Both the position numbers and the translations under genes were made by a program. From Thermoproteota archaeon (GTDB lineage Archaea; Thermoproteota; EX4484-205; JAAOZP01): a stretch of 64,000 nt of DNA. This document shows positions 52,628 to 60,240 of this stretch, in pieces. Position 1 is the stretch's first letter, and each line of letters opens with the position of its first letter. The stretch is taken from the NCBI GenBank assembly GCA_038867695.1, contig JAWBXT010000001.1:169-64168 (forward strand), in the 5' to 3' direction. The notes below the pieces were generated by a model. It searched no databases, was not told the DNA's origin, and saw only the letters and a program-made list of their open reading frames with translations.

Positions 52628-54064
52628 TTGAATATGGGGGCGTTCCAAGAGAAGTTTGAAAAGGCGGAGACTGCTTTCAATTTTGAAGAAGTTATCCTAC
52701 TACCTGGTTTTTCAGAAATCGAACCCAGGGAGATAGGCCTGAGAACAATGTTTTCGAAAAACATCCAGATAAACATCCCCCTTGTCTCTTCACCGATGGA
52801 TACTGTAACCGAGTCTGAAATGGCAATAGCGCTCGCGAGACACGGTGGAATCGGCGTCGTACATAGGAACTGCTCCGCAGAGGAGGAACTGGAGATGGTT
52901 AAAGCAGTGAAGAGGGCAGAGTCTTTCATAATCAGAGATGTGATAACGATAAACAAGGAGGCTACTGTAGGAGAAGCTGCTGAAATAATGAGGAGACACA
53001 AGATATCGGGGCTCCCCGTTGTTGAGGGCAATAGGCTGATCGGGATAATAACCGGAAGAGATGTGAGGTTTGCAAATCCCTCGATAAGGGTTGAGGAAGC
53101 TATGACTAGGGATGTAGTAGTAGCAAGCCCAAGCGTCACTCCCGAGGAGGCTGTGGAGCTAATGAAAATGCATAGGGTTGAGAAGCTGCCGGTTGTAGAT
53201 GATAACAAGAGGCTCGTTGGACTAATAACCTACAAGGATGTGGCGCTCAGAGGAGAGTATAAGGAGGCTACTAGAGACTCTGAGGGTAGACTGAGGGTTG
53301 CTGCAGCAGTATCCCCGTTCGACATCGACAGGGCCAAGATGCTGGCTAAGCATGCAGATGCTCTAGTAATAGATGTCGCACACTTCCATAATAGGAACGT
53401 TATAGAAGCAACGCGGAAGCTTGTGAAGGAAGTGGCCATAGACATTATAGTCGGGAGCCTGGGTACCAAGCAGGGAGTACTGGACTCGGTATCCAGAATA
53501 GAAAGTGTCGCCGGGCTTAGGGTGGGGATTGGAAGCGGCTCAGCATGTATAACGACGGAGATTACTAGAGCGGGAGCACCCACGCTCTTCGCAGTAGCCC
53601 AGGCTGCAGACGCCCTTGAAGAACTTGGTTTGAAAGTACCGGTGATTGCAGACGGAGGAGTTAGGAACCCAGGGGATGTTGCGCTAGCAATAGCCTTAGG
53701 AGCATCCTGCGCCATGTTGGGATATGTTTTAGCAGGCTGCAAGGAGAGCCCGAGCCCTATGACCATAATAAACGGCAAATACTTCAAGCTGCACAGGGGC
53801 ATGGGCAGCCAGTCGGCGAGGCAGAAGAGAATGGCGTTGGATAGATATGCAACGCTGGCGAAAGAAATACCCGAAGGCACTGAGATCTGGGTGCCCTATC
53901 GCGGAGACGTATCTTCAGTAATAAGCGAATTCGCAGCAGGAATAAGGGCAGCAATGGGCTACGCCGGAGTATCCAACATCGAAGAGTTGAGGAGAAAAGG
54001 GAGGGTAGCGAGAATCATTTCACGGATGGAAAAAAGCACTGTGGGCCAGAGCACTATGGTATAG
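52628..54064 (+). CDS. guaB: inosine-5'-monophosphate dehydrogenase with tandem CBS domains
   Basis: IGSGSACITTE catalytic Cys loop, GGVRNPGD, and a CBS pair in the flap. Confidence 0.9.
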   Translation: MNMGAFQEKFEKAETAFNFEEVILLPGFSEIEPREIGLRTMFSKNIQINIPLVSSPMDTVTESEMAIALARHGGIGVVHRNCSAEEELEMVKAVKRAESFIIRDVITINKEATVGEAAEIMRRHKISGLPVVEGNRLIGIITGRDVRFANPSIRVEEAMTRDVVVASPSVTPEEAVELMKMHRVEKLPVVDDNKRLVGLITYKDVALRGEYKEATRDSEGRLRVAAAVSPFDIDRAKMLAKHADALVIDVAHFHNRNVIEATRKLVKEVAIDIIVGSLGTKQGVLDSVSRIESVAGLRVGIGSGSACITTEITRAGAPTLFAVAQAADALEELGLKVPVIADGGVRNPGDVALAIALGASCAMLGYVLAGCKESPSPMTIINGKYFKLHRGMGSQSARQKRMALDRYATLAKEIPEGTEIWVPYRGDVSSVISEFAAGIRAAMGYAGVSNIEELRRKGRVARIISRMEKSTVGQSTMV

Positions 54065-54347
54065 AATCAAGCATGATATGCGGCATGAGCGCCAAGAAAT
54101 ACGGTGAAGCCTTCAACCTGTGCTTGGCGAAAAAGGGTGTGGAAACCAGAACCAGTAATGATGGTGAATGAGTCAGCCCGTGGTGTCCGAAAGGCGTGCC
54201 GAACGAAAGTGGGAAAGCATAGTCAATGTCGGGAGCTACGCCAAGCATGGTTGCAAGCACTCCGTCGCGAGGCCCGTTGCTCCTAAGCCTTGTTAGAGCA
54301 GCGTAGGTAACTAAGTATCCTGCGAGAGCGTGAACCGACCCTATCAT
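54054..54347 (-). pseudogene. truncated paralog (first 97 aa only) of a YdjM/DUF457-like membrane-bound metal-dependent hydrolase
   Basis: About 70% identical in protein and nucleotide sequence to the N-terminus of the 270-aa ORF at 59428..60240 (MIGSVHALAGYLV...FGHHGLTHSPSLLVL). It ends abruptly, overlapping the guaB stop. Confidence 0.55.
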
Positions 54348-54616
54348 GACTAGCCACCATGTCCCGTTTACTGTTTCAGGCTTGCATAGTGAAGCTAATA
54401 ACTTTCCCTACTGCTCTTACGGGTCTTCCTAAACCTGTTTCCCATCCGCTCTCCCCCCGCCAACCCTGTTTAAGTAGGACCGTTATCTTTCTCTCGAATT
54501 CCCTGCATTTGGGGGAGCTCGCTTTCCACGAGAGGCCCTTTAATCCCCTGAACCCTTACAGATAACCCTAGGGGTATTTGTCTTCTTACATAGGTTTCTG
54601 ATTTAATTGTTTCGGT

Positions 54617-55612
54617 TTAGAGACAAAATATGGGGTCTGGTGCCTTTATGTCGCCGAAGAGTACGTGGGCTGCTTCTCTGCATCCGCCCTTGCATTTTTC
54701 AAGTTTGGGGCAGCCTTCACACATCTCAGGGGTATAGCGCAACTCTTTGAAGCCCCTCACGTATTCTGATGTTTCATAGAGTTCTTTAGGATCTGATTCA
54801 AGGCAGTTACCCAGAACCACTGGAGAATGATTACAAACCTTCAATCCTCCAGAGGGATCTATTGCGCAATGAAGATCCTTTCCTGCCATGCACCCTTCCT
54901 TTAGAAGAAACTTATACTCTCTCAATCCCTCAAGACATGGAGGTGTGGGTGTACCTACGAATGGCGCAATCCCGTATTCTTCACACGCCTCCTCAACTAT
55001 GTTCAGCATCTCCACTAACTCTTTCTCCTTTAGGCTTAGACTTTGCGCATTTCTTAATCCTCTGCCCCCAGGAAGAAACCTGTTAATCAACACAGAATTC
55101 ATATCCATTGAAGCAACTAGAGCTATCGTATCCCTAAGATCACGCAGATTTAGACGATTAACAACGATTACTGCTGACATGGATACACTATAATCCATAA
55201 GCGCTACTATCCCCTCCAAAGCTCTATTGAAGCTACCATTTACTCCCGTAAGCTTTTCATGCGTTTGCTGCAAGCCGTGAATAGAAATCTGCACGACCCT
55301 AAAGTTCTCTGCTATCTCCTTTGCCAGCTTCGCGCAAAGAAGTCCGTTTGTTAAAAGAGAATTCTTGAAACCCTGATCCTTCGAGTATCGCGCTATCTCA
55401 AATATATTTCGGTTTAGAAGAGGTTCTCCACCAGAGAAAGCAAGATTATCTACACCCCATTCTTTAAGCTTGTCGATTATAGTAAAAAAATCCTTTGGTG
55501 GGAGTACCTTCTTCCGAGGGTATCGTTGCGCCTTTGTAGCCCGCCACGGATTATAGCAGAACTTACAGCATAGGTTGCAGGAGTATGCAACCTCGAGTAC
55601 AGCGACCTTCAT
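54617..55612 (-). CDS. radical SAM enzyme with C-terminal SPASM-like Cys-rich domain
   Basis: CNLCCKFC (CxxxCxxC) near the N-terminus, a GGEPLL SAM motif, and a C-terminal Cys cluster (CAIDPSGGLKVCNHS...CEGCPKLEKCKGGC). Confidence 0.8.
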   Translation of the reverse strand: MKVAVLEVAYSCNLCCKFCYNPWRATKAQRYPRKKVLPPKDFFTIIDKLKEWGVDNLAFSGGEPLLNRNIFEIARYSKDQGFKNSLLTNGLLCAKLAKEIAENFRVVQISIHGLQQTHEKLTGVNGSFNRALEGIVALMDYSVSMSAVIVVNRLNLRDLRDTIALVASMDMNSVLINRFLPGGRGLRNAQSLSLKEKELVEMLNIVEEACEEYGIAPFVGTPTPPCLEGLREYKFLLKEGCMAGKDLHCAIDPSGGLKVCNHSPVVLGNCLESDPKELYETSEYVRGFKELRYTPEMCEGCPKLEKCKGGCREAAHVLFGDIKAPDPIFCL

Positions 55613-55614
55613 AC

Positions 55615-55908
55615 TTACTTCCGAAGGGGTTCGAGCTCCTTAAGATGGGTTTCAAAATGTTGAATAGCGGCTTCCCCTATTCTGGAATCAAGCTTCCCTT
55701 CTCTGACAAGAGTTTTTACCAGCTCTATTCTAGCTTTAAAGTATTTTTCCATTAATATTGGCTCCGGGTCAGGGTCAAATAGTGGAAGTGTTTTTCCAGC
55801 TTGCACAGGATCTATCCTATTGCTAACAATTATTTCCCACATAGGAGGCAGATAGCATATAGGAGGCCTAATCCTTATTCTGTCCCAAACGTTTATTTTG
55901 CTGATCAT
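55615..55908 (-). CDS. hypothetical 97-aa protein translationally coupled to the radical SAM gene
   Basis: Its stop at 55615-55617 is 2 nt from the radical SAM ATG at 55612. It has an N-terminal Pro/Trp-rich segment and a C-terminal helical region. Confidence 0.4.
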   Translation of the reverse strand: MISKINVWDRIRIRPPICYLPPMWEIIVSNRIDPVQAGKTLPLFDPDPEPILMEKYFKARIELVKTLVREGKLDSRIGEAAIQHFETHLKELEPLRK

Positions 55909-56552
55909 TTCAACTTTTAGGAAGAGAATCCTCTATTTATATCTTGTGGACTATTTTATTTTATATGGAAAGTAACATTTCTGATGTATACATCTGTAAA
56001 TTAAACAAATTACATTACTATTAAAAACACATCAAAATGTTGTTTTTTAAGCAATAAGGCATGTTTCAAATTCTTATCTACATATAGTAGAACATTATGT
56101 CGAAAAACGACATTATACAGTCTCATATTAATATTTTCTCATCTACCATGAATTATTTAAAGTTCTTTTTCAAATTCACTTCAACCCCTCTTTAAATCAG
56201 CTAATCCTTCCTCCCTTCAATCTTTTATAATCAAAAAGAAGATGGCGTACTACGTGCTAGAGTCTGCTTTTCCGGTTAATTTCAATTTCCAGATTTATAT
56301 GGACTCTATGAAGCGCCCTCGCACCCATCTATTTTAAGTAATGTGTCATAAGGCTTTTAAGCATTCGAAGCGGTTTAGCTAAAAGTGTTGTGGAGATAAG
56401 AAATCCATGCCTCTCTTCTCTAATTGCAGATGTTGATTACCATTTTTTTAGAGAATATTTTGGTGGAGGCTTTACGTCATCGAGTCGCTTAAAGAACGGT
56501 TCAGACCGGAATGTATGTTAAATGATATAGAGTATTATCTAAAGGATTAAAA

Positions 56553-56777
56553 TTAAAGGAGCTTTATGAACTCTTCGACTGTTAAGCCTGCTTGCCTTAT
56601 GATTGCTCTTAGTGTTCCCTTGGTTATTTCCCTATGTTTCGGCACGGTTATCCTTCGATGAGGCTTCTCTTTCTGCCTTAGAATTATGTGGCTTCCAGTC
56701 TGATGGTCAATTTAGTAACCGATTTTAGAAAGTGCTTTAACAACATCCATACCGGAGACTACTGGCAGCTTAGACAT
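56553..56777 (-). pseudogene. hicA: hicA-family (YcfA-like) mRNA-interferase toxin gene with an in-frame TAA at codon 22
   Basis: Reverse-complement translation gives MSKLPVVSGMDVVKALSKIGY*IDHQTGSHIILRQKEKPHRRITVPKHREITKGTLRAIIRQAGLTVEEFIKLL, the canonical HicA motif set. Confidence 0.6.
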
Positions 56778-56928
56778 TAACTTCAACCAGCTCTTCTTCT
56801 ATGGATGGAGGAATCGGTTCATCATGCTTCTTCAAGCTAGCTAAGTAGCCAGCGATAGCATCCTTAATATTTGAGATCAGGGACAAAATTATGAAAAATC
56901 GCGATTATAGAGCTCTTAAACTCAATCA
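56770..56928 (-). pseudogene. hicB: hicB-like antitoxin remnant (frameshifted/deleted), 3' end overlapping hicA start by 8 nt
   Basis: MYFLIEFKSSIIAIFHNFVPDL, then a +1 shift into NIKDAIAGYLASLKKHDEPIPPSIEEELVEVNV, a HicB-like C-terminus. The stop overlaps the hicA ATG (ATGTCTAA). Confidence 0.4.
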
Positions 56929-57900
56929 GGAAATACATATTTCCAGCTTTTTCAGAATTTTTAGTTTCCTAGCAAGTCACTTAGGTATCGATCCTCTCCC
57001 AAAAAGGTTAACTTATTTTAGTCAACTATTTTAACCAGTAATTCAAAAATGGTTGTCAGAAAATTGGCTTGAACTAACAGCATTTATATTTGCCATTATT
57101 TCTTTTCTCTTGAGTCTACTGAAACTTATTTAATATATTCCATATTTCTTCGTCTTTTCTCTTTAGCATATACTAGTGTTTCTATTCTCTTCTTATTCAC
57201 TTTTAATTCTCCTCCCGTCTCTTTACCCACCATGCTATTGTTCCCAAAATAGATATTATGAATATTGATTCAACCAGCTTCTCGGTAAGTGGTTCCTCTG
57301 GAAATGCGAGCCATTCAAATACGATGAAGACCATGGCCATGATTAATAATATCTTAGACCACTTAGCCAATCCAGCTCACCCATGTCCAGTACGCTTAGT
57401 TTTGTTTTTAAGAGAAGCGTCAAAGCATATACCCACTCCTATAAACTTTATGAATGAACAAGGAAAAAATTTCTCGATTAGAAGCAGAAAATAATCCAAG
57501 ATTCTTGCGTGAAACTGAGGATGCTTTAATCTCATTATACGCATCTCCAATTAGAATCCGTGTCCCAATACCTAAACCATCGATTGCTGAAGCCAAGAGT
57601 TTTATTGAACGTCATCCGAATTGAGTGGCTTTCATCAGCGGTATCCTCGCAACAGTTATCGCAGAAATAATTCTTTCCTCTATTCTTCGCATATTATCCT
57701 TCTAATAGGATCTTAGATAAAAAGAGGAACAAAACCTAACTTGGTAAATGTCTCCGGACTAAATCTGAGAACAGGAAAAAGAAGTAACTCTAAAGAGGAT
57801 GCTGCAAGAGGTGAAAAATGATTGGGACTATTGGTTAACATACCATAGGGATTAAAATAGCCTTTAACAAAGCCTTTTCCATCCTTCAAACGCCTTAAAC

Positions 57901-57950
57901 CTTAAATATCCCTCCATGAAGCTATTGGGACAGCAAGGAGGAAAAAAGAA
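57901..57950 (+). promoter_or_regulatory. tuf upstream region: TATA-like CTTAAATAT (57901-57909) and strong Shine-Dalgarno GGAGG (57937-57941) 9 nt before ATG
   Basis: Read directly from the sequence. Confidence 0.35.
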
Positions 57951-59276
57951 ATGAGTTCGTCAAGCAAACCACACTTGAATCTCGTGGTCTGCGGACATGT
58001 GGATCACGGGAAGAGCACAACTACTGGTCACTTGCTTTACTTGACTGGCTACGTTGACGAGAGGAAGATGAGGGAGCTTGAAGCAGAGTCTGCCAAGACT
58101 GGTCTGGGCGATACTTTCAAGTTCGCGTGGGTCCTGGACAAGCTGAAGGAGGAGCGTGAGCGTGGTGTAACCATCGACGCAGCATACGTAAAGTTCGAAA
58201 CTAAGAAATATTACTACACTATTATTGATGCTCCTGGCCATCGTGACTTCGTAAAAAATATGATTACTGGTGCTAGCCAGGCTGATAGTGCTTTGCTGAT
58301 TATCTCTGCGAAGAAGGGTGAGTTTGAGGCTGGTACGAGTCCTGAGGGTCAGACTACTGAGCATGCTTTCCTGCTGTTTACCCTCGGCGTTAGGCAGATT
58401 GTTATCGGTGTTAACAAGATGGATGATCCTTCTGTTAACTGGAGCCAGGATAGGTTTAACGAGGTTAAGAAGAATGTTGAGGATTTGCTGAGGCGTATTG
58501 GTTTCAATCTTGAGAAGAACCCGATTCCGATTATTCCTATTAGCGGCTGGACTGGCGATAATCTTGTTAAGCCTAGTGATAAGATGCCTTGGTACAAGGG
58601 TCCTACTTTGATTGAGGCTCTTGACGCTTTTCAGCCTCCGCCTAGGCCTGTTGACAAGCCTTTGAGGATTCCGCTTCAGCAGGTTTTCACTATTCCTGGT
58701 GTTGGCACTGTTCCCGCTGGCAGGGTTGAGACCGGTGTGTTGAAGCCTAATACTAGGGTTGTTATCAGGCCTCTGGATAAGATTGTTGAGTTGAAGACTA
58801 TTGAGATGCATCACACGCAGCTTGAGAAGGCGGAGCCCGGTGACAATGTCGGTATGGCCATTAAGGGTGTTTCTAAACAGGAGTTGAGGAGGGGCATGGT
58901 TATGGGTTATCCTGATAACCCGCCGACTGTTGCTAAGTCTTTCGTAGGCAGGATTATTGTTATTAGGCATCCTACTGCTATCGCCGCCGGCTATACTCCT
59001 GTGCTCCACGTGCATACTGAGCAGGTTGCCTGCACTTTCGAGGAGCTTCAGAAGAAGATTGATCCTCGTACTGGCGCGGTTATTCAGGAGAAGCCTGATT
59101 TCCTGAAAACCGGTGACGCCGCTATCGTGAAGTTTAGGCCCTTAAGGCCTATTGCGATTGAAGTATATTCTGAGTTCCCCCAGTTGGGTAGGTTTGCAAT
59201 CAGAGACATGGGCATGACTATCGCCGCAGGCATCGTTACGGAGATTCCTGAGAAGGTTCCTTTCGAAGCTAAATAG
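57951..59276 (+). CDS. tuf: translation elongation factor 1-alpha
   Basis: GHVDHGKST, DAPGH, NKMD and SGW G-domain motifs in a 441-aa protein. A T-rich terminator-like tract follows at 59290-59310. Confidence 0.95.
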   Translation: MSSSSKPHLNLVVCGHVDHGKSTTTGHLLYLTGYVDERKMRELEAESAKTGLGDTFKFAWVLDKLKEERERGVTIDAAYVKFETKKYYYTIIDAPGHRDFVKNMITGASQADSALLIISAKKGEFEAGTSPEGQTTEHAFLLFTLGVRQIVIGVNKMDDPSVNWSQDRFNEVKKNVEDLLRRIGFNLEKNPIPIIPISGWTGDNLVKPSDKMPWYKGPTLIEALDAFQPPPRPVDKPLRIPLQQVFTIPGVGTVPAGRVETGVLKPNTRVVIRPLDKIVELKTIEMHHTQLEKAEPGDNVGMAIKGVSKQELRRGMVMGYPDNPPTVAKSFVGRIIVIRHPTAIAAGYTPVLHVHTEQVACTFEELQKKIDPRTGAVIQEKPDFLKTGDAAIVKFRPLRPIAIEVYSEFPQLGRFAIRDMGMTIAAGIVTEIPEKVPFEAK

Positions 59277-59427: not shown

Positions 59428-60240
59428 ATGATTGGCCCAGTTCACGCTCTGGCAGGATACCTCGTCGCTTACATTTCCTTGAAAATGCTAAAGAATAGGG
59501 AGCCTCACGATGGGGTACTCGCAGCCATACTTGGGGCAGTACCTGACGTTGATTACATATCTCCACTACCATTCGGCACACCGTTTGGGCATCATGGAGT
59601 AACCCATTCGCCTTCACTGCTGGTGCTAGCTTCTGTACCATTTTTAGCCAAGTACAGGCGTAAAGCAGCCCCATATTTCCTGGCACTCACGTCTCATATC
59701 GTAGCGGATTTTGTTGATAATACTGTCCCACTATTGGCACCATTCTCATGGGAGGAGTTCGGCCTACGTTTTTCACTCTCTTCTTCGACCCTACCCCTGG
59801 CTCATTCCATACAGCTTTTCATTACCATGATTTCGGCATATGTTATGGTCAAGGGTAAGAAGCAACTCCCAATATCTTTGCCTGAGAGATATGATAAGCT
59901 GGCAACACCAGCCTTAATGTTGCTTGCACTAGTAGTCCCGTTTCTGCCATGGTTAATGCACAAAGACATCCAGTTTTTCATTAACTTATCTGTAGAACCA
60001 TATTTTGCAGTATCCATTGTATTAGTGATATCTTCCTTAACACTCGTATTCCTGATTCTAATGTTGAATAGTAAACTTCTAGTCCAGAGGCTTAAGCATT
60101 ATTGTTATTCATTAAATCGCTGCTTATATAAGCGTAATAATGTTCTTACTCATCCTTCCGTCATATATATCGCTAATGGTTTTCCAAATATTGCACAAGG
60201 CTCGTCTGCTGGCAAGTGGTCCGAAAATGCTTTTCAATAA
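59428..60240 (+). CDS. YdjM/DUF457-like membrane-bound metal-dependent hydrolase (full-length paralog)
   Basis: HxGxTHS motif (FGHHGVTHSPS) and multiple TM helices. The truncated paralog lies at 54054..54347 in inverted orientation. Confidence 0.55.
   Translation: MIGPVHALAGYLVAYISLKMLKNREPHDGVLAAILGAVPDVDYISPLPFGTPFGHHGVTHSPSLLVLASVPFLAKYRRKAAPYFLALTSHIVADFVDNTVPLLAPFSWEEFGLRFSLSSSTLPLAHSIQLFITMISAYVMVKGKKQLPISLPERYDKLATPALMLLALVVPFLPWLMHKDIQFFINLSVEPYFAVSIVLVISSLTLVFLILMLNSKLLVQRLKHYCYSLNRCLYKRNNVLTHPSVIYIANGFPNIAQGSSAGKWSENAFQ

Follow-up and report, generated by a model that had tools for sequence, protein, structure and literature searches.

A two-gene archaeal radical SAM/SPASM system with a probable protein substrate bearing an N-terminal Cys-aromatic-x-Pro site

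In a 64,000-nucleotide stretch of DNA from a Thermoproteota archaeon (the window; positions 169 to 64,168 of the forward strand of contig JAWBXT010000001.1, assembly GCA_038867695.1), two adjoining minus-strand genes at 54617–55908 code for a 97-aa protein and a 331-aa radical S-adenosylmethionine (rSAM) enzyme with a SPASM-type domain. Our analysis indicates that the two genes probably form a substrate–maturase unit, in which the 97-aa protein is the most likely substrate, modified at a P-x-C-[Y/H/F]-x-P site close to its N-terminus. We favor the small protein as the substrate because its site recurs in the gene upstream of related rSAM clades. A substrate is preferred to a helper because the small gene is tandemly duplicated, as is typical of precursor genes, and because the model of its product shows neither a PqqD fold nor a Pfam match. 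An earlier reading of the DNA (hereafter the sequence-only reading) had proposed a peptide- or protein-modification pair and had offered three roles for the small protein: a substrate peptide, a leader, or a chaperone resembling PqqD or the RiPP recognition element (RRE; RiPP, a peptide made by the ribosome and modified after translation). The notion of such a pair is upheld, in that the enzyme falls under every NCBIfam cut-off while the small open reading frame (ORF) is conserved and linked to the rSAM clade. Among the three roles the substrate is favored, the site being shared with related clades.

Linkage and conservation of the gene pair

The small gene (55615–55908, minus strand) begins with an ATG and ends in a TAA stop at 55615–55617. 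A 2-nt spacer (55613–55614) separates this stop from the ATG (55610–55612) of the rSAM gene (54617–55612), making the two a tight co-translation unit, whose coordinates, strand and gap had been given correctly by the sequence-only reading. Linkage was assessed in the window and in loci L001–L018, L027, L029 and L057–L061 with a hidden Markov model (HMM) scan. The small gene lies directly 5′ of each intact rSAM gene of the close family for which upstream DNA is available, and an rSAM gene follows each small gene. The spacer is 0–6 nt in most lineages: 0 nt in Bathyarchaeota (TAAATG), 2 nt in the window and in L057, and 6 nt in L002; it measures 71 nt in the Hodarchaeota locus L003. Further, an all-against-all comparison of 13 loci recovered only these two genes in common and no third gene conserved with them, and in this sense the earlier remark that the pair sits alone is right. 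In ~12 archaeal lineages the pair has no linked gene for a protease, a transporter or immunity. An FAD (flavin adenine dinucleotide)-dependent oxidoreductase encoded upstream of the pair in Bathyarchaeota was rejected as a conserved partner, since it is specific to that lineage. As a separate observation, in the Bathyarchaeota contig CAVZJV010000014.1 (locus L011, 1140–5320) a second, different peptide-type cluster is found directly upstream of the pair. It comprises a 494-aa rSAM protein with a Cys-rich C-terminus, another rSAM-like protein of 330 aa, and Cys-rich small ORFs, one of which contains PACWSCGTGPTPACWSCGTGPTPAC as a repeat.

Both genes are under purifying selection, and the small ORF is thus a genuine gene. 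Relative to the 87%-identical homologue L057, the ratio of nonsynonymous to synonymous substitution rates (dN/dS) comes to 0.15 in the small gene and to 0.11 in the rSAM gene; the overall range for the small gene is 0.12–0.21, with 0.36 between the L002 paralogues. Tandem copies of the small gene are present in L002 and in a Bathyarchaeota lineage (L004/L007). A selenocysteine-containing partner, as in GeoRSP-like systems, was considered and rejected: the L004 DNA codes for a normal, full-length second copy (MSENFDRIRIRAPICYFPP...) with an ordinary TGT codon for Cys. On the same DNA evidence, the four family members annotated at 76 aa, which begin right after the Cys site, result from mis-called starts and not from TGA read-through.

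The pair is being lost in a sister lineage. When the window at 54599–56307 was compared with contig Ga0209080_1000652 (L019, 3921–4807; ~87% DNA identity), the latter proved to carry an 810-bp deletion (window 55410–56219) that has done away with the small gene and its promoter region along with rSAM codons 1–68, and the remainder of the rSAM gene is frameshifted. The pair is thus dispensable. Homologues of the small protein amount to 3 clusters by a single-sequence search and 39 clusters (90% identity) by a profile search, and when 1.84 billion representatives were searched exhaustively with an HMM, the family fell into 18 clusters at 50% identity. It is found in 5 of 185,579 species representatives and has so far been named only in Thermoproteota, Bathyarchaeota, Methanoperedens and Hodarchaeota. 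Since the family is both this rare and dispensable, its physiological importance is probably narrow.

The radical SAM/SPASM enzyme

In the 331-aa protein, a radical SAM enzyme, the C-terminal domain is of the SPASM type. Its CX3CX2C cluster motif (CNLCCKFC, codons 12–19; 55556–55579, minus strand) has C12, C16 and C19 invariant in 23 of 23 family members, and Pfam assigns it to Radical_SAM (PF04055; 88.2 bits against a cut-off of 29.5) together with Fer4_12. The SPASM-type auxiliary-cluster region covers codons 226–330 (54623–54937, minus strand). Here, against the pattern CX9-15GX4C ... CX2CX5CX3C ... C, the enzyme displays the canonical seven-Cys arrangement, namely C241-x13-G255-x4-C260, C298-x2-C301-x5-C307-x3-C311 and C330. 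Both cysteine features had already been pointed out by the sequence-only reading. Across the 23 members C226, C241, C249, C260, C298, C301, C307 and C311 are invariant, with C330 kept in only 5; these eight further invariant cysteines would be enough to hold two auxiliary Fe-S clusters. The Pfam SPASM model itself (PF13186) does not match the 331-aa enzyme at E≤1, and is present in some relatives at 36–40% identity. The enzyme aligns to PqqE along its full length, C-terminal Cys region included, and its closest sequences in the PDB are SkfB and PqqE. Its AlphaFold2 (AF2) model, with a predicted local distance difference test score (pLDDT) of 86.5, consists of a single rSAM barrel and a SPASM domain; there is no RRE domain in the enzyme and no extra N-terminal domain in the model. 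Foldseek matched this model to SkfB (2.9e-16), SuiB (2.8e-13), anSME (8e-13) and PqqE (1.1e-10), with TM values of 0.67–0.76. The enzyme's own cluster loop (residues 19–23; 55544–55558, minus strand), C-K-F-C-Y-N-P-W, resembles the C-Y-x-P...W pattern of the proposed substrate site; this likeness of a loop conserved in the clade as CxFCYN[PA]W is probably a coincidence.

None of the NCBIfam equivalogs was reached by the enzyme, the scores being 3–5 fold below cut-off. The best match was GeoRSP (TIGR04303) with 122.9 bits against a cut-off of 400; other scores were those of AhbD (112.8 against 500), PqqE (111 against 381.35), NirJ1 (106.7 against 650), NirJ2 (102.6 against 500), NirJ (101.9 against 515), AhbC (95.6 against 650), MftC (88 against 265) and the prokaryotic viperin pVip (NF038283; 73.9 against 180). 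Membership of the AhbD, NirJ, PqqE, MftC and anSME families was accordingly rejected by this HMM classification, which leaves the enzyme outside AhbD and the other cofactor-pathway classes. Viperin membership was also rejected, since the PADLOC pVip models match only the generic rSAM core (residues 8–182). The homologues of the enzyme form a tight clade of ~25 clusters at 58–89% identity, beyond which identity falls to 40% or less.

These scores bear on one alternative, in which the enzyme acts like AhbD or NirJ on a tetrapyrrole or another small-molecule cofactor, and the small protein is either a carrier binding it through the Cys-His/Tyr site or unrelated to the reaction. AhbD, NirJ, NirJ1/2 and AhbC are indeed among the best NCBIfam matches of the enzyme, and they come top for a sister clade considered below. 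Yet the haem-family scores lie far under their cut-offs (for AhbD, 113 against 500), no haem or sirohaem genes are found near the pair, and the top structural matches are protein or peptide maturases. We regard a cofactor substrate as highly improbable.

The small protein: a conserved site ahead of a helical hairpin

All full-length members of the small-protein family retain C18, P21 and an aromatic residue at position 19. These residues belong to the Pro/Trp-rich N-terminal string of the 97-aa protein (WDRIRIRPPICYLPPMWEI), which the sequence-only reading had quoted correctly. The proposed recognition and modification site is delimited by conservation, a profile scan and hhalign to codons 14–25 (RPPICYLPPMWE; 55834–55869, minus strand). 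In the window protein it reads RPPICYLPPMW, the family consensus being P-x-C-[Y/H/F]-x-P-x-x-[W/F], and divergent archaeal members have C-H-x-P at this place. The family alignment opens with the block D-R-I-R-x-R-P-P-x-C-Y-x-P-P-x-W-E, continues with a variable linker carrying P-D-P-x-P, and closes with a C-terminal hairpin in which R60, K72-L-D74 and H84-x3-H88 are invariant. The conserved site begins ~7–15 residues from the N-terminus in the archaeal family, and the folded domain comes after it.

The AF2 model of the small protein (pLDDT 74) is all-helical and has no strands, with two helices at residues 50–69 and 75–95 predicted at pLDDT 83–89. This backs the helical C-terminus noted by the sequence-only reading. 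On the strength of the model and of the conservation, the hairpin (codons 50–95; 55624–55761, minus strand) is a candidate docking or "follower" module. A metal site formed by three His residues (H56/H84/H88) was considered and dropped, as H56 is replaced by Y or F in divergent members and only the HxxxH is invariant. The suggestion that the small protein might be a leader was half right: the helical part is there, whereas the conserved N-terminal Pro/Cys/Tyr/Trp stretch would act as the core, with the helices after it.

A protein conserved from end to end, with a confidently predicted hairpin bearing invariant KLD and HxxxH motifs, might instead be a helper, that is, a chaperone, scaffold or recognition subunit with a PqqD- or RRE-like role on another fold, which would bring to the enzyme a small molecule or a peptide or protein encoded elsewhere. 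For an enzyme without an RRE, recognition by a separate partner would be sensible, and tight gene coupling is typical of two-subunit enzymes too. The specific version of this idea, a PqqD/RRE chaperone, finds no support and was rejected: besides the all-helical fold, Foldseek searches of the model against the PDB gave nothing with E<1, none of 39 family members matches the Pfam PqqD model (PF05402), and the family profile has no match among PDB sequences. The lack of any PqqD/RRE signal in fold or sequence also tells against a helper in general. Moreover, the small gene is tandemly duplicated in two lineages, which is unusual for a subunit, and there is no third conserved gene to supply an alternative substrate. 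The distribution of the site in related clades, presented next, adds to these objections, and on the whole we think a helper quite unlikely.

The same site beside related radical SAM clades

Relatives of the enzyme at 33–35% identity occur as tandem rSAM/SPASM pairs on high-G+C metagenome contigs. One or two ORFs of 45–47 aa precede each such pair, and code for peptides with an acidic helical leader (MSKEKILKALKDEELKKQLL..EVEELEERVA) and a C-terminal core. The cores read RPWLCYMPMPW, RWLCYRPVPW, PWLCYRPEPV, RPFCFMPVP, KPWICFKPAIP and RPWMCFRPAIP. Set against the archaeal R-P-P-I-C-Y-L-P-P-M-W, they share Arg at −4, Pro at −3, a hydrophobic residue at −1, the Cys itself, an aromatic residue at +1, Pro at +3 and Trp at +6. 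We built a position-specific scoring matrix (PSSM) from the archaeal site sequences only, and scanned it over 211,639 positions with 20 whole-set shuffles as control. The core of the leader-type locus L026 ranks first of all these positions, with 19.4 bits against a shuffle maximum of 15.9, and three more leader-type cores appear at ranks 3, 7 and 17. Likewise, hhalign pairs precisely the archaeal site and the leader-type core regions (P=3.8e-4).

The leader-type loci themselves (L021, L024, L026, L028, L030 and L052, all on metagenome contigs) define a peptide family with the leader MSKE.I..AL..EEL...LL..LEVEELEERVA and the core [RK]-P-W-x-C-[YF]-x-P-x-P-W. Some of these loci add one or two ApyD-like B12-rSAM genes or an HlyD-family gene. 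NCBIfam has no model for any component of this peptide system, and the family is apparently undescribed.

By their HlyD-family secretion and B12-rSAM tailoring genes, the clusters of these leader-type relatives look like secreted-peptide pathways, and this raises the question of whether the archaeal pair is a classical RiPP pathway, in which an unlinked protease excises the modified N-terminal segment of the small protein and the resulting bioactive peptide is exported. The tandem duplication of precursor genes and the deletion of the dispensable pair in a sister lineage would both suit such a pathway. In the ~12 archaeal lineages, however, the pair has no linked genes for a protease, a transporter or immunity, and the core region shows no hypervariability. 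The C-terminal two thirds of the protein are as conserved as the site, with invariant His, Lys and Asp residues, which exceeds the needs of a disposable follower, and the sites of the sister clade are embedded in membrane proteins and not in simple precursors. We therefore deem an excised and exported peptide unlikely.

In that sister clade (P0030/31/35/37), the gene immediately 5′ of the rSAM gene again carries the site, which in these membrane proteins takes the form P-P-x-C-H-x-P, as in the segment VPPTCHAPPM. Locus L062 (2356–2920) codes for two tandem single-pass membrane proteins of ~95 aa, in which the site region reads VPPTCHAPPMNPPW and PPPTCHGAAPSPPW. Locus L064 (975–1247) codes for a 90-aa single-pass membrane protein with DPPCVMCHLPA, beside the archaeal gene tiaS. 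In L053 (3081–3842) and L054 (4124–4897), a polytopic membrane protein has D-x-W-V-[TS]-C-H-L-P-A-L-P (WVTCHLPALP), which is kept between homologues of 50% identity. No NCBIfam model exists for the site-bearing upstream proteins of the related clades. Per residue, C-[HYF]-x-P has a background frequency of no more than 3.9e-4, true positives counted in, and the presence of the site in the 5′ neighbor of five separate clades is hence far above chance. A rough neighbor-joining tree groups the site-bearing clades with the archaeal clade, away from the large remaining group. That group (P0036–P0123, at 36–40% identity) was not used as evidence, since the one context sampled from it, L055, is unrelated: at L055 1–9443, genes for HSP70, an AAA ATPase, a 659-aa protein and a TPR protein are followed by a 335-aa rSAM gene (P0056) and then a zinc-ribbon protein gene.

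The recurrence of the site on four unrelated scaffolds upstream of related rSAM genes is hard to reconcile with a helper, all the more as in the leader-type peptides it is C-terminal and can only be a core. For the cofactor alternative, the C-H of the sister-clade sites and the site C-V-M-C-H of L064, a literal CXXCH haem c motif, are points in favor. Against it, CXXCH occurs in one sequence only, and several leader-type cores have at +1 a Phe, which is unable to ligate iron.

The site is apparently portable across scaffolds. Taken further, this would make the rSAM superclade an unrecognized protein-modifying family that installs one modification at a portable P-x-C-[Y/H/F]-x-P site grafted onto unrelated scaffolds, namely the archaeal protein with its helical hairpin, membrane proteins of both the single-pass and the polytopic kind, and the leader-type peptides. 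The archaeal product would then be an intact protein with a cross-link or a protein-derived cofactor. We hold this wider proposal to be doubtful. Were it true, a Cys-aromatic thioether beside the HxxxH, for example, could serve as a redox or metal site, with no secreted product.

A proposed mechanism and the points that weigh against it

Under the preferred substrate–maturase reading, the C-terminal hairpin (residues ~50–95, with its invariant KLD and HxxxH) would dock onto the enzyme, taking the place of a leader and an RRE. Docking would present R14-P-P-I-C18-Y19-L-P21-P-M-W24-E25 to the active site, where the 5′-deoxyadenosyl radical would take a hydrogen within residues 14–25 and a covalent modification would be installed. 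Our first choice for that modification, a guess to which we attach a likelihood of about one third, is an intramolecular thioether that would link the invariant Cys18 with a carbon close by; it is put first because of the analogy with the sacti- and ranthipeptide maturases (SkfB, PapB) and with QhpD. Candidate alternative chemistries are conversion of Cys18 to formylglycine by oxidation, and a three-residue cyclophane in which the aromatic residue at position 19 would be bonded to Pro21. The product is expected to be an intact, modified, cytoplasmic small protein and not a cleaved, secreted peptide, because no protease or exporter is linked to the pair and the whole protein is conserved.

Several points weigh against this picture. 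An N-terminal core with a folded domain behind it is unusual for rSAM-modified peptides. The whole small protein is conserved, beyond the site, which a structural partner would fit too, and its AF2 model is weak (pLDDT 56–69) precisely across the proposed site. As for the relation to other clades, only one of the peptide cores is significant by itself in the PSSM scan, the hhalign probability is only 36%, and a 20-column HMM of the archaeal site, run against all ORFs outside the archaeal loci, missed the leader-type peptides, which shows that the site signal is short. The second L062 paralogue has C-H-G-A-A-P, so the Pro at +3 is not absolute. The tree was rooted at its midpoint and carries no support values, and most metagenomic relatives are without assigned taxonomy. 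Finally, both the chemistry and the docking role are inferred.

Genomic setting

On one side the pair is flanked by genes for rpoB/rpoA, an L7Ae-family protein, NusA, S12, S7 and IMPDH, and on the other by the EF-1alpha gene. The annotation, which covered the window beyond its first 40 kb, contains no pqq, ahb or mft genes near the pair, in agreement with the sequence-only reading; the flanks are genes for RNA polymerase, ribosomal proteins, IMPDH and EF-1alpha. About 30 nt upstream of the ATG of the small gene lies a TATA-box-like element, ATATAAATA (55934–55942, minus strand). The usual archaeal TATA-to-start distance of this predicted element suggests a bicistronic mRNA that is leaderless or has a short leader. 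The 97-aa protein is probably made from the same transcript as the rSAM enzyme, and that transcript is probably leaderless.

The sequence-only reading had placed the pair inside a decayed island, and this is partly borne out. A truncated YdjM-like ORF of 97 aa (54054–54347, minus strand), matching profile positions 1–108 of 176, overlaps the IMPDH gene at its 3′ end; the YdjM-family fragment is retained in the identical contigs L058–L060, and a full-length YdjM paralogue of 270 aa is found beyond EF-1alpha (59428–60240, plus strand). Between the small gene and EF-1alpha, the 2 kb at 55909–57950 have ~31–39% G+C, compared to ~45–50% in the flanks. This stretch contains no long ORF. It contains a 53-residue match to the HicA toxin family (56553–56711, minus strand) without a standard start codon and without a HicB partner, and a hydrophobic 55-aa ORF (57203–57370, minus strand). 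Most of the low-G+C stretch is without a counterpart in the sister contig L019. An Rfam search for structured RNA over 53900–58100 at E≤1 gave no match.

Contig JAWAYR010000002.1, from the Thermoproteota metagenome-assembled genome GCA_038818465.1, and the window share 99.9% identity. Elsewhere in the window, at 1458–2181, there is a tRNA cluster in which a tRNA-Ala is 88 nt long and another call, of 96 nt, has an "anticodon" of four bases (tggt); these odd calls are probably intron-containing archaeal tRNAs mis-parsed by ARAGORN.

Novelty and significance

Pairs formed by a substrate and its rSAM/SPASM maturase are known; the novelty here lies in the unusual site and in the inverted layout of the substrate in archaea. 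A full-text literature search, which included the motif strings, found no description of this family, and none of the curated family models covers either partner. To our knowledge, rSAM/SPASM maturases have been characterized mostly in bacteria and on peptides with a leader followed by a core. The layout here is an unusual one: a compact two-gene archaeal system without an RRE, with the site at the N-terminus of a folded protein of ~95 aa. Further, at least four scaffolds with the same site provide a comparative series for substrate recognition by RRE-free SPASM enzymes and for chemistry at Cys-aromatic-x-Pro.

Comparison with known systems

The archaeal pair resembles the RiPPs modified by rSAM enzymes in having a co-oriented small gene adjoining the maturase gene, with strict co-occurrence of the two. 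The leader-then-core layout, an RRE domain or partner, and a linked protease or exporter are absent from it. The leader-type relatives have the classic RiPP layout, and HlyD-type genes are found near these only.

The sacti- and ranthipeptide maturases SkfB, CteB and PapB share with the window enzyme the rSAM domain, SPASM or twitch clusters, and an adjoining small substrate gene with an essential Cys. Among them SkfB is the top match of the window enzyme both by sequence and by fold. These maturases form thioethers from Cys. They carry an N-terminal RRE, which the window enzyme lacks, and their precursors consist of a leader and then a core with several Cys residues, whereas the small protein of the window has only one Cys, close to its N-terminus and ahead of a folded helical domain. 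Scores on the NCBIfam models for SkfB, StsB and PapB are far under cut-off.

With PqqE/PqqA and MftC/MftA, the pair shares a small adjoining substrate gene and a conserved aromatic residue, and the core of the leader-type relatives is at the extreme C-terminus, as in MftA. The archaeal pair differs in having no PqqD- or MftB-like partner and no other pqq or mft genes, and the site has an invariant Cys, while PqqA and MftA have none. The aromatic-x-Pro of the site formally fits the aromatic-X-X cyclophane motif of the triceptides and His-Xaa-Ser systems, and HxsC-type models match the related tandem enzymes. These scores are far under cut-off, however, and the triceptide motifs, which are usually repeated, hold no counterpart of the invariant Cys.

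anSME is of similar size, has a SPASM domain and no RRE, and directly modifies a full-length protein, at a Cys that lies within a short site containing Pro; in Foldseek it matches the window enzyme with a TM of 0.71–0.75. Sulfatases, in contrast, carry C/S-x-P-x-R, which includes an Arg and has its Pro at +2, where the site here is C-[Y/H/F]-x-P and has it at +3. The pair is without a sulfatase neighbor, and the anSME model TIGR03942 was not reached by the relatives scored.

In the QhpD/QhpC system, a SPASM rSAM enzyme cross-links Cys inside a protein of ~80–110 aa that is kept as a functional polypeptide. No relationship to this system was detected by sequence: the QhpD model (TIGR03906) is not among the listed matches of the window enzyme, and a relative scores 45 bits against its cut-off of 453. 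Unlike the QhpD system, the archaeal pair has no dehydrogenase subunits or QhpG-type genes nearby. QhpC acquires several Cys-Asp/Glu links and a Cys-Trp quinone, whereas the window protein offers one site. For an end product that is itself a modified small protein, QhpD/QhpC is the closest analogue.

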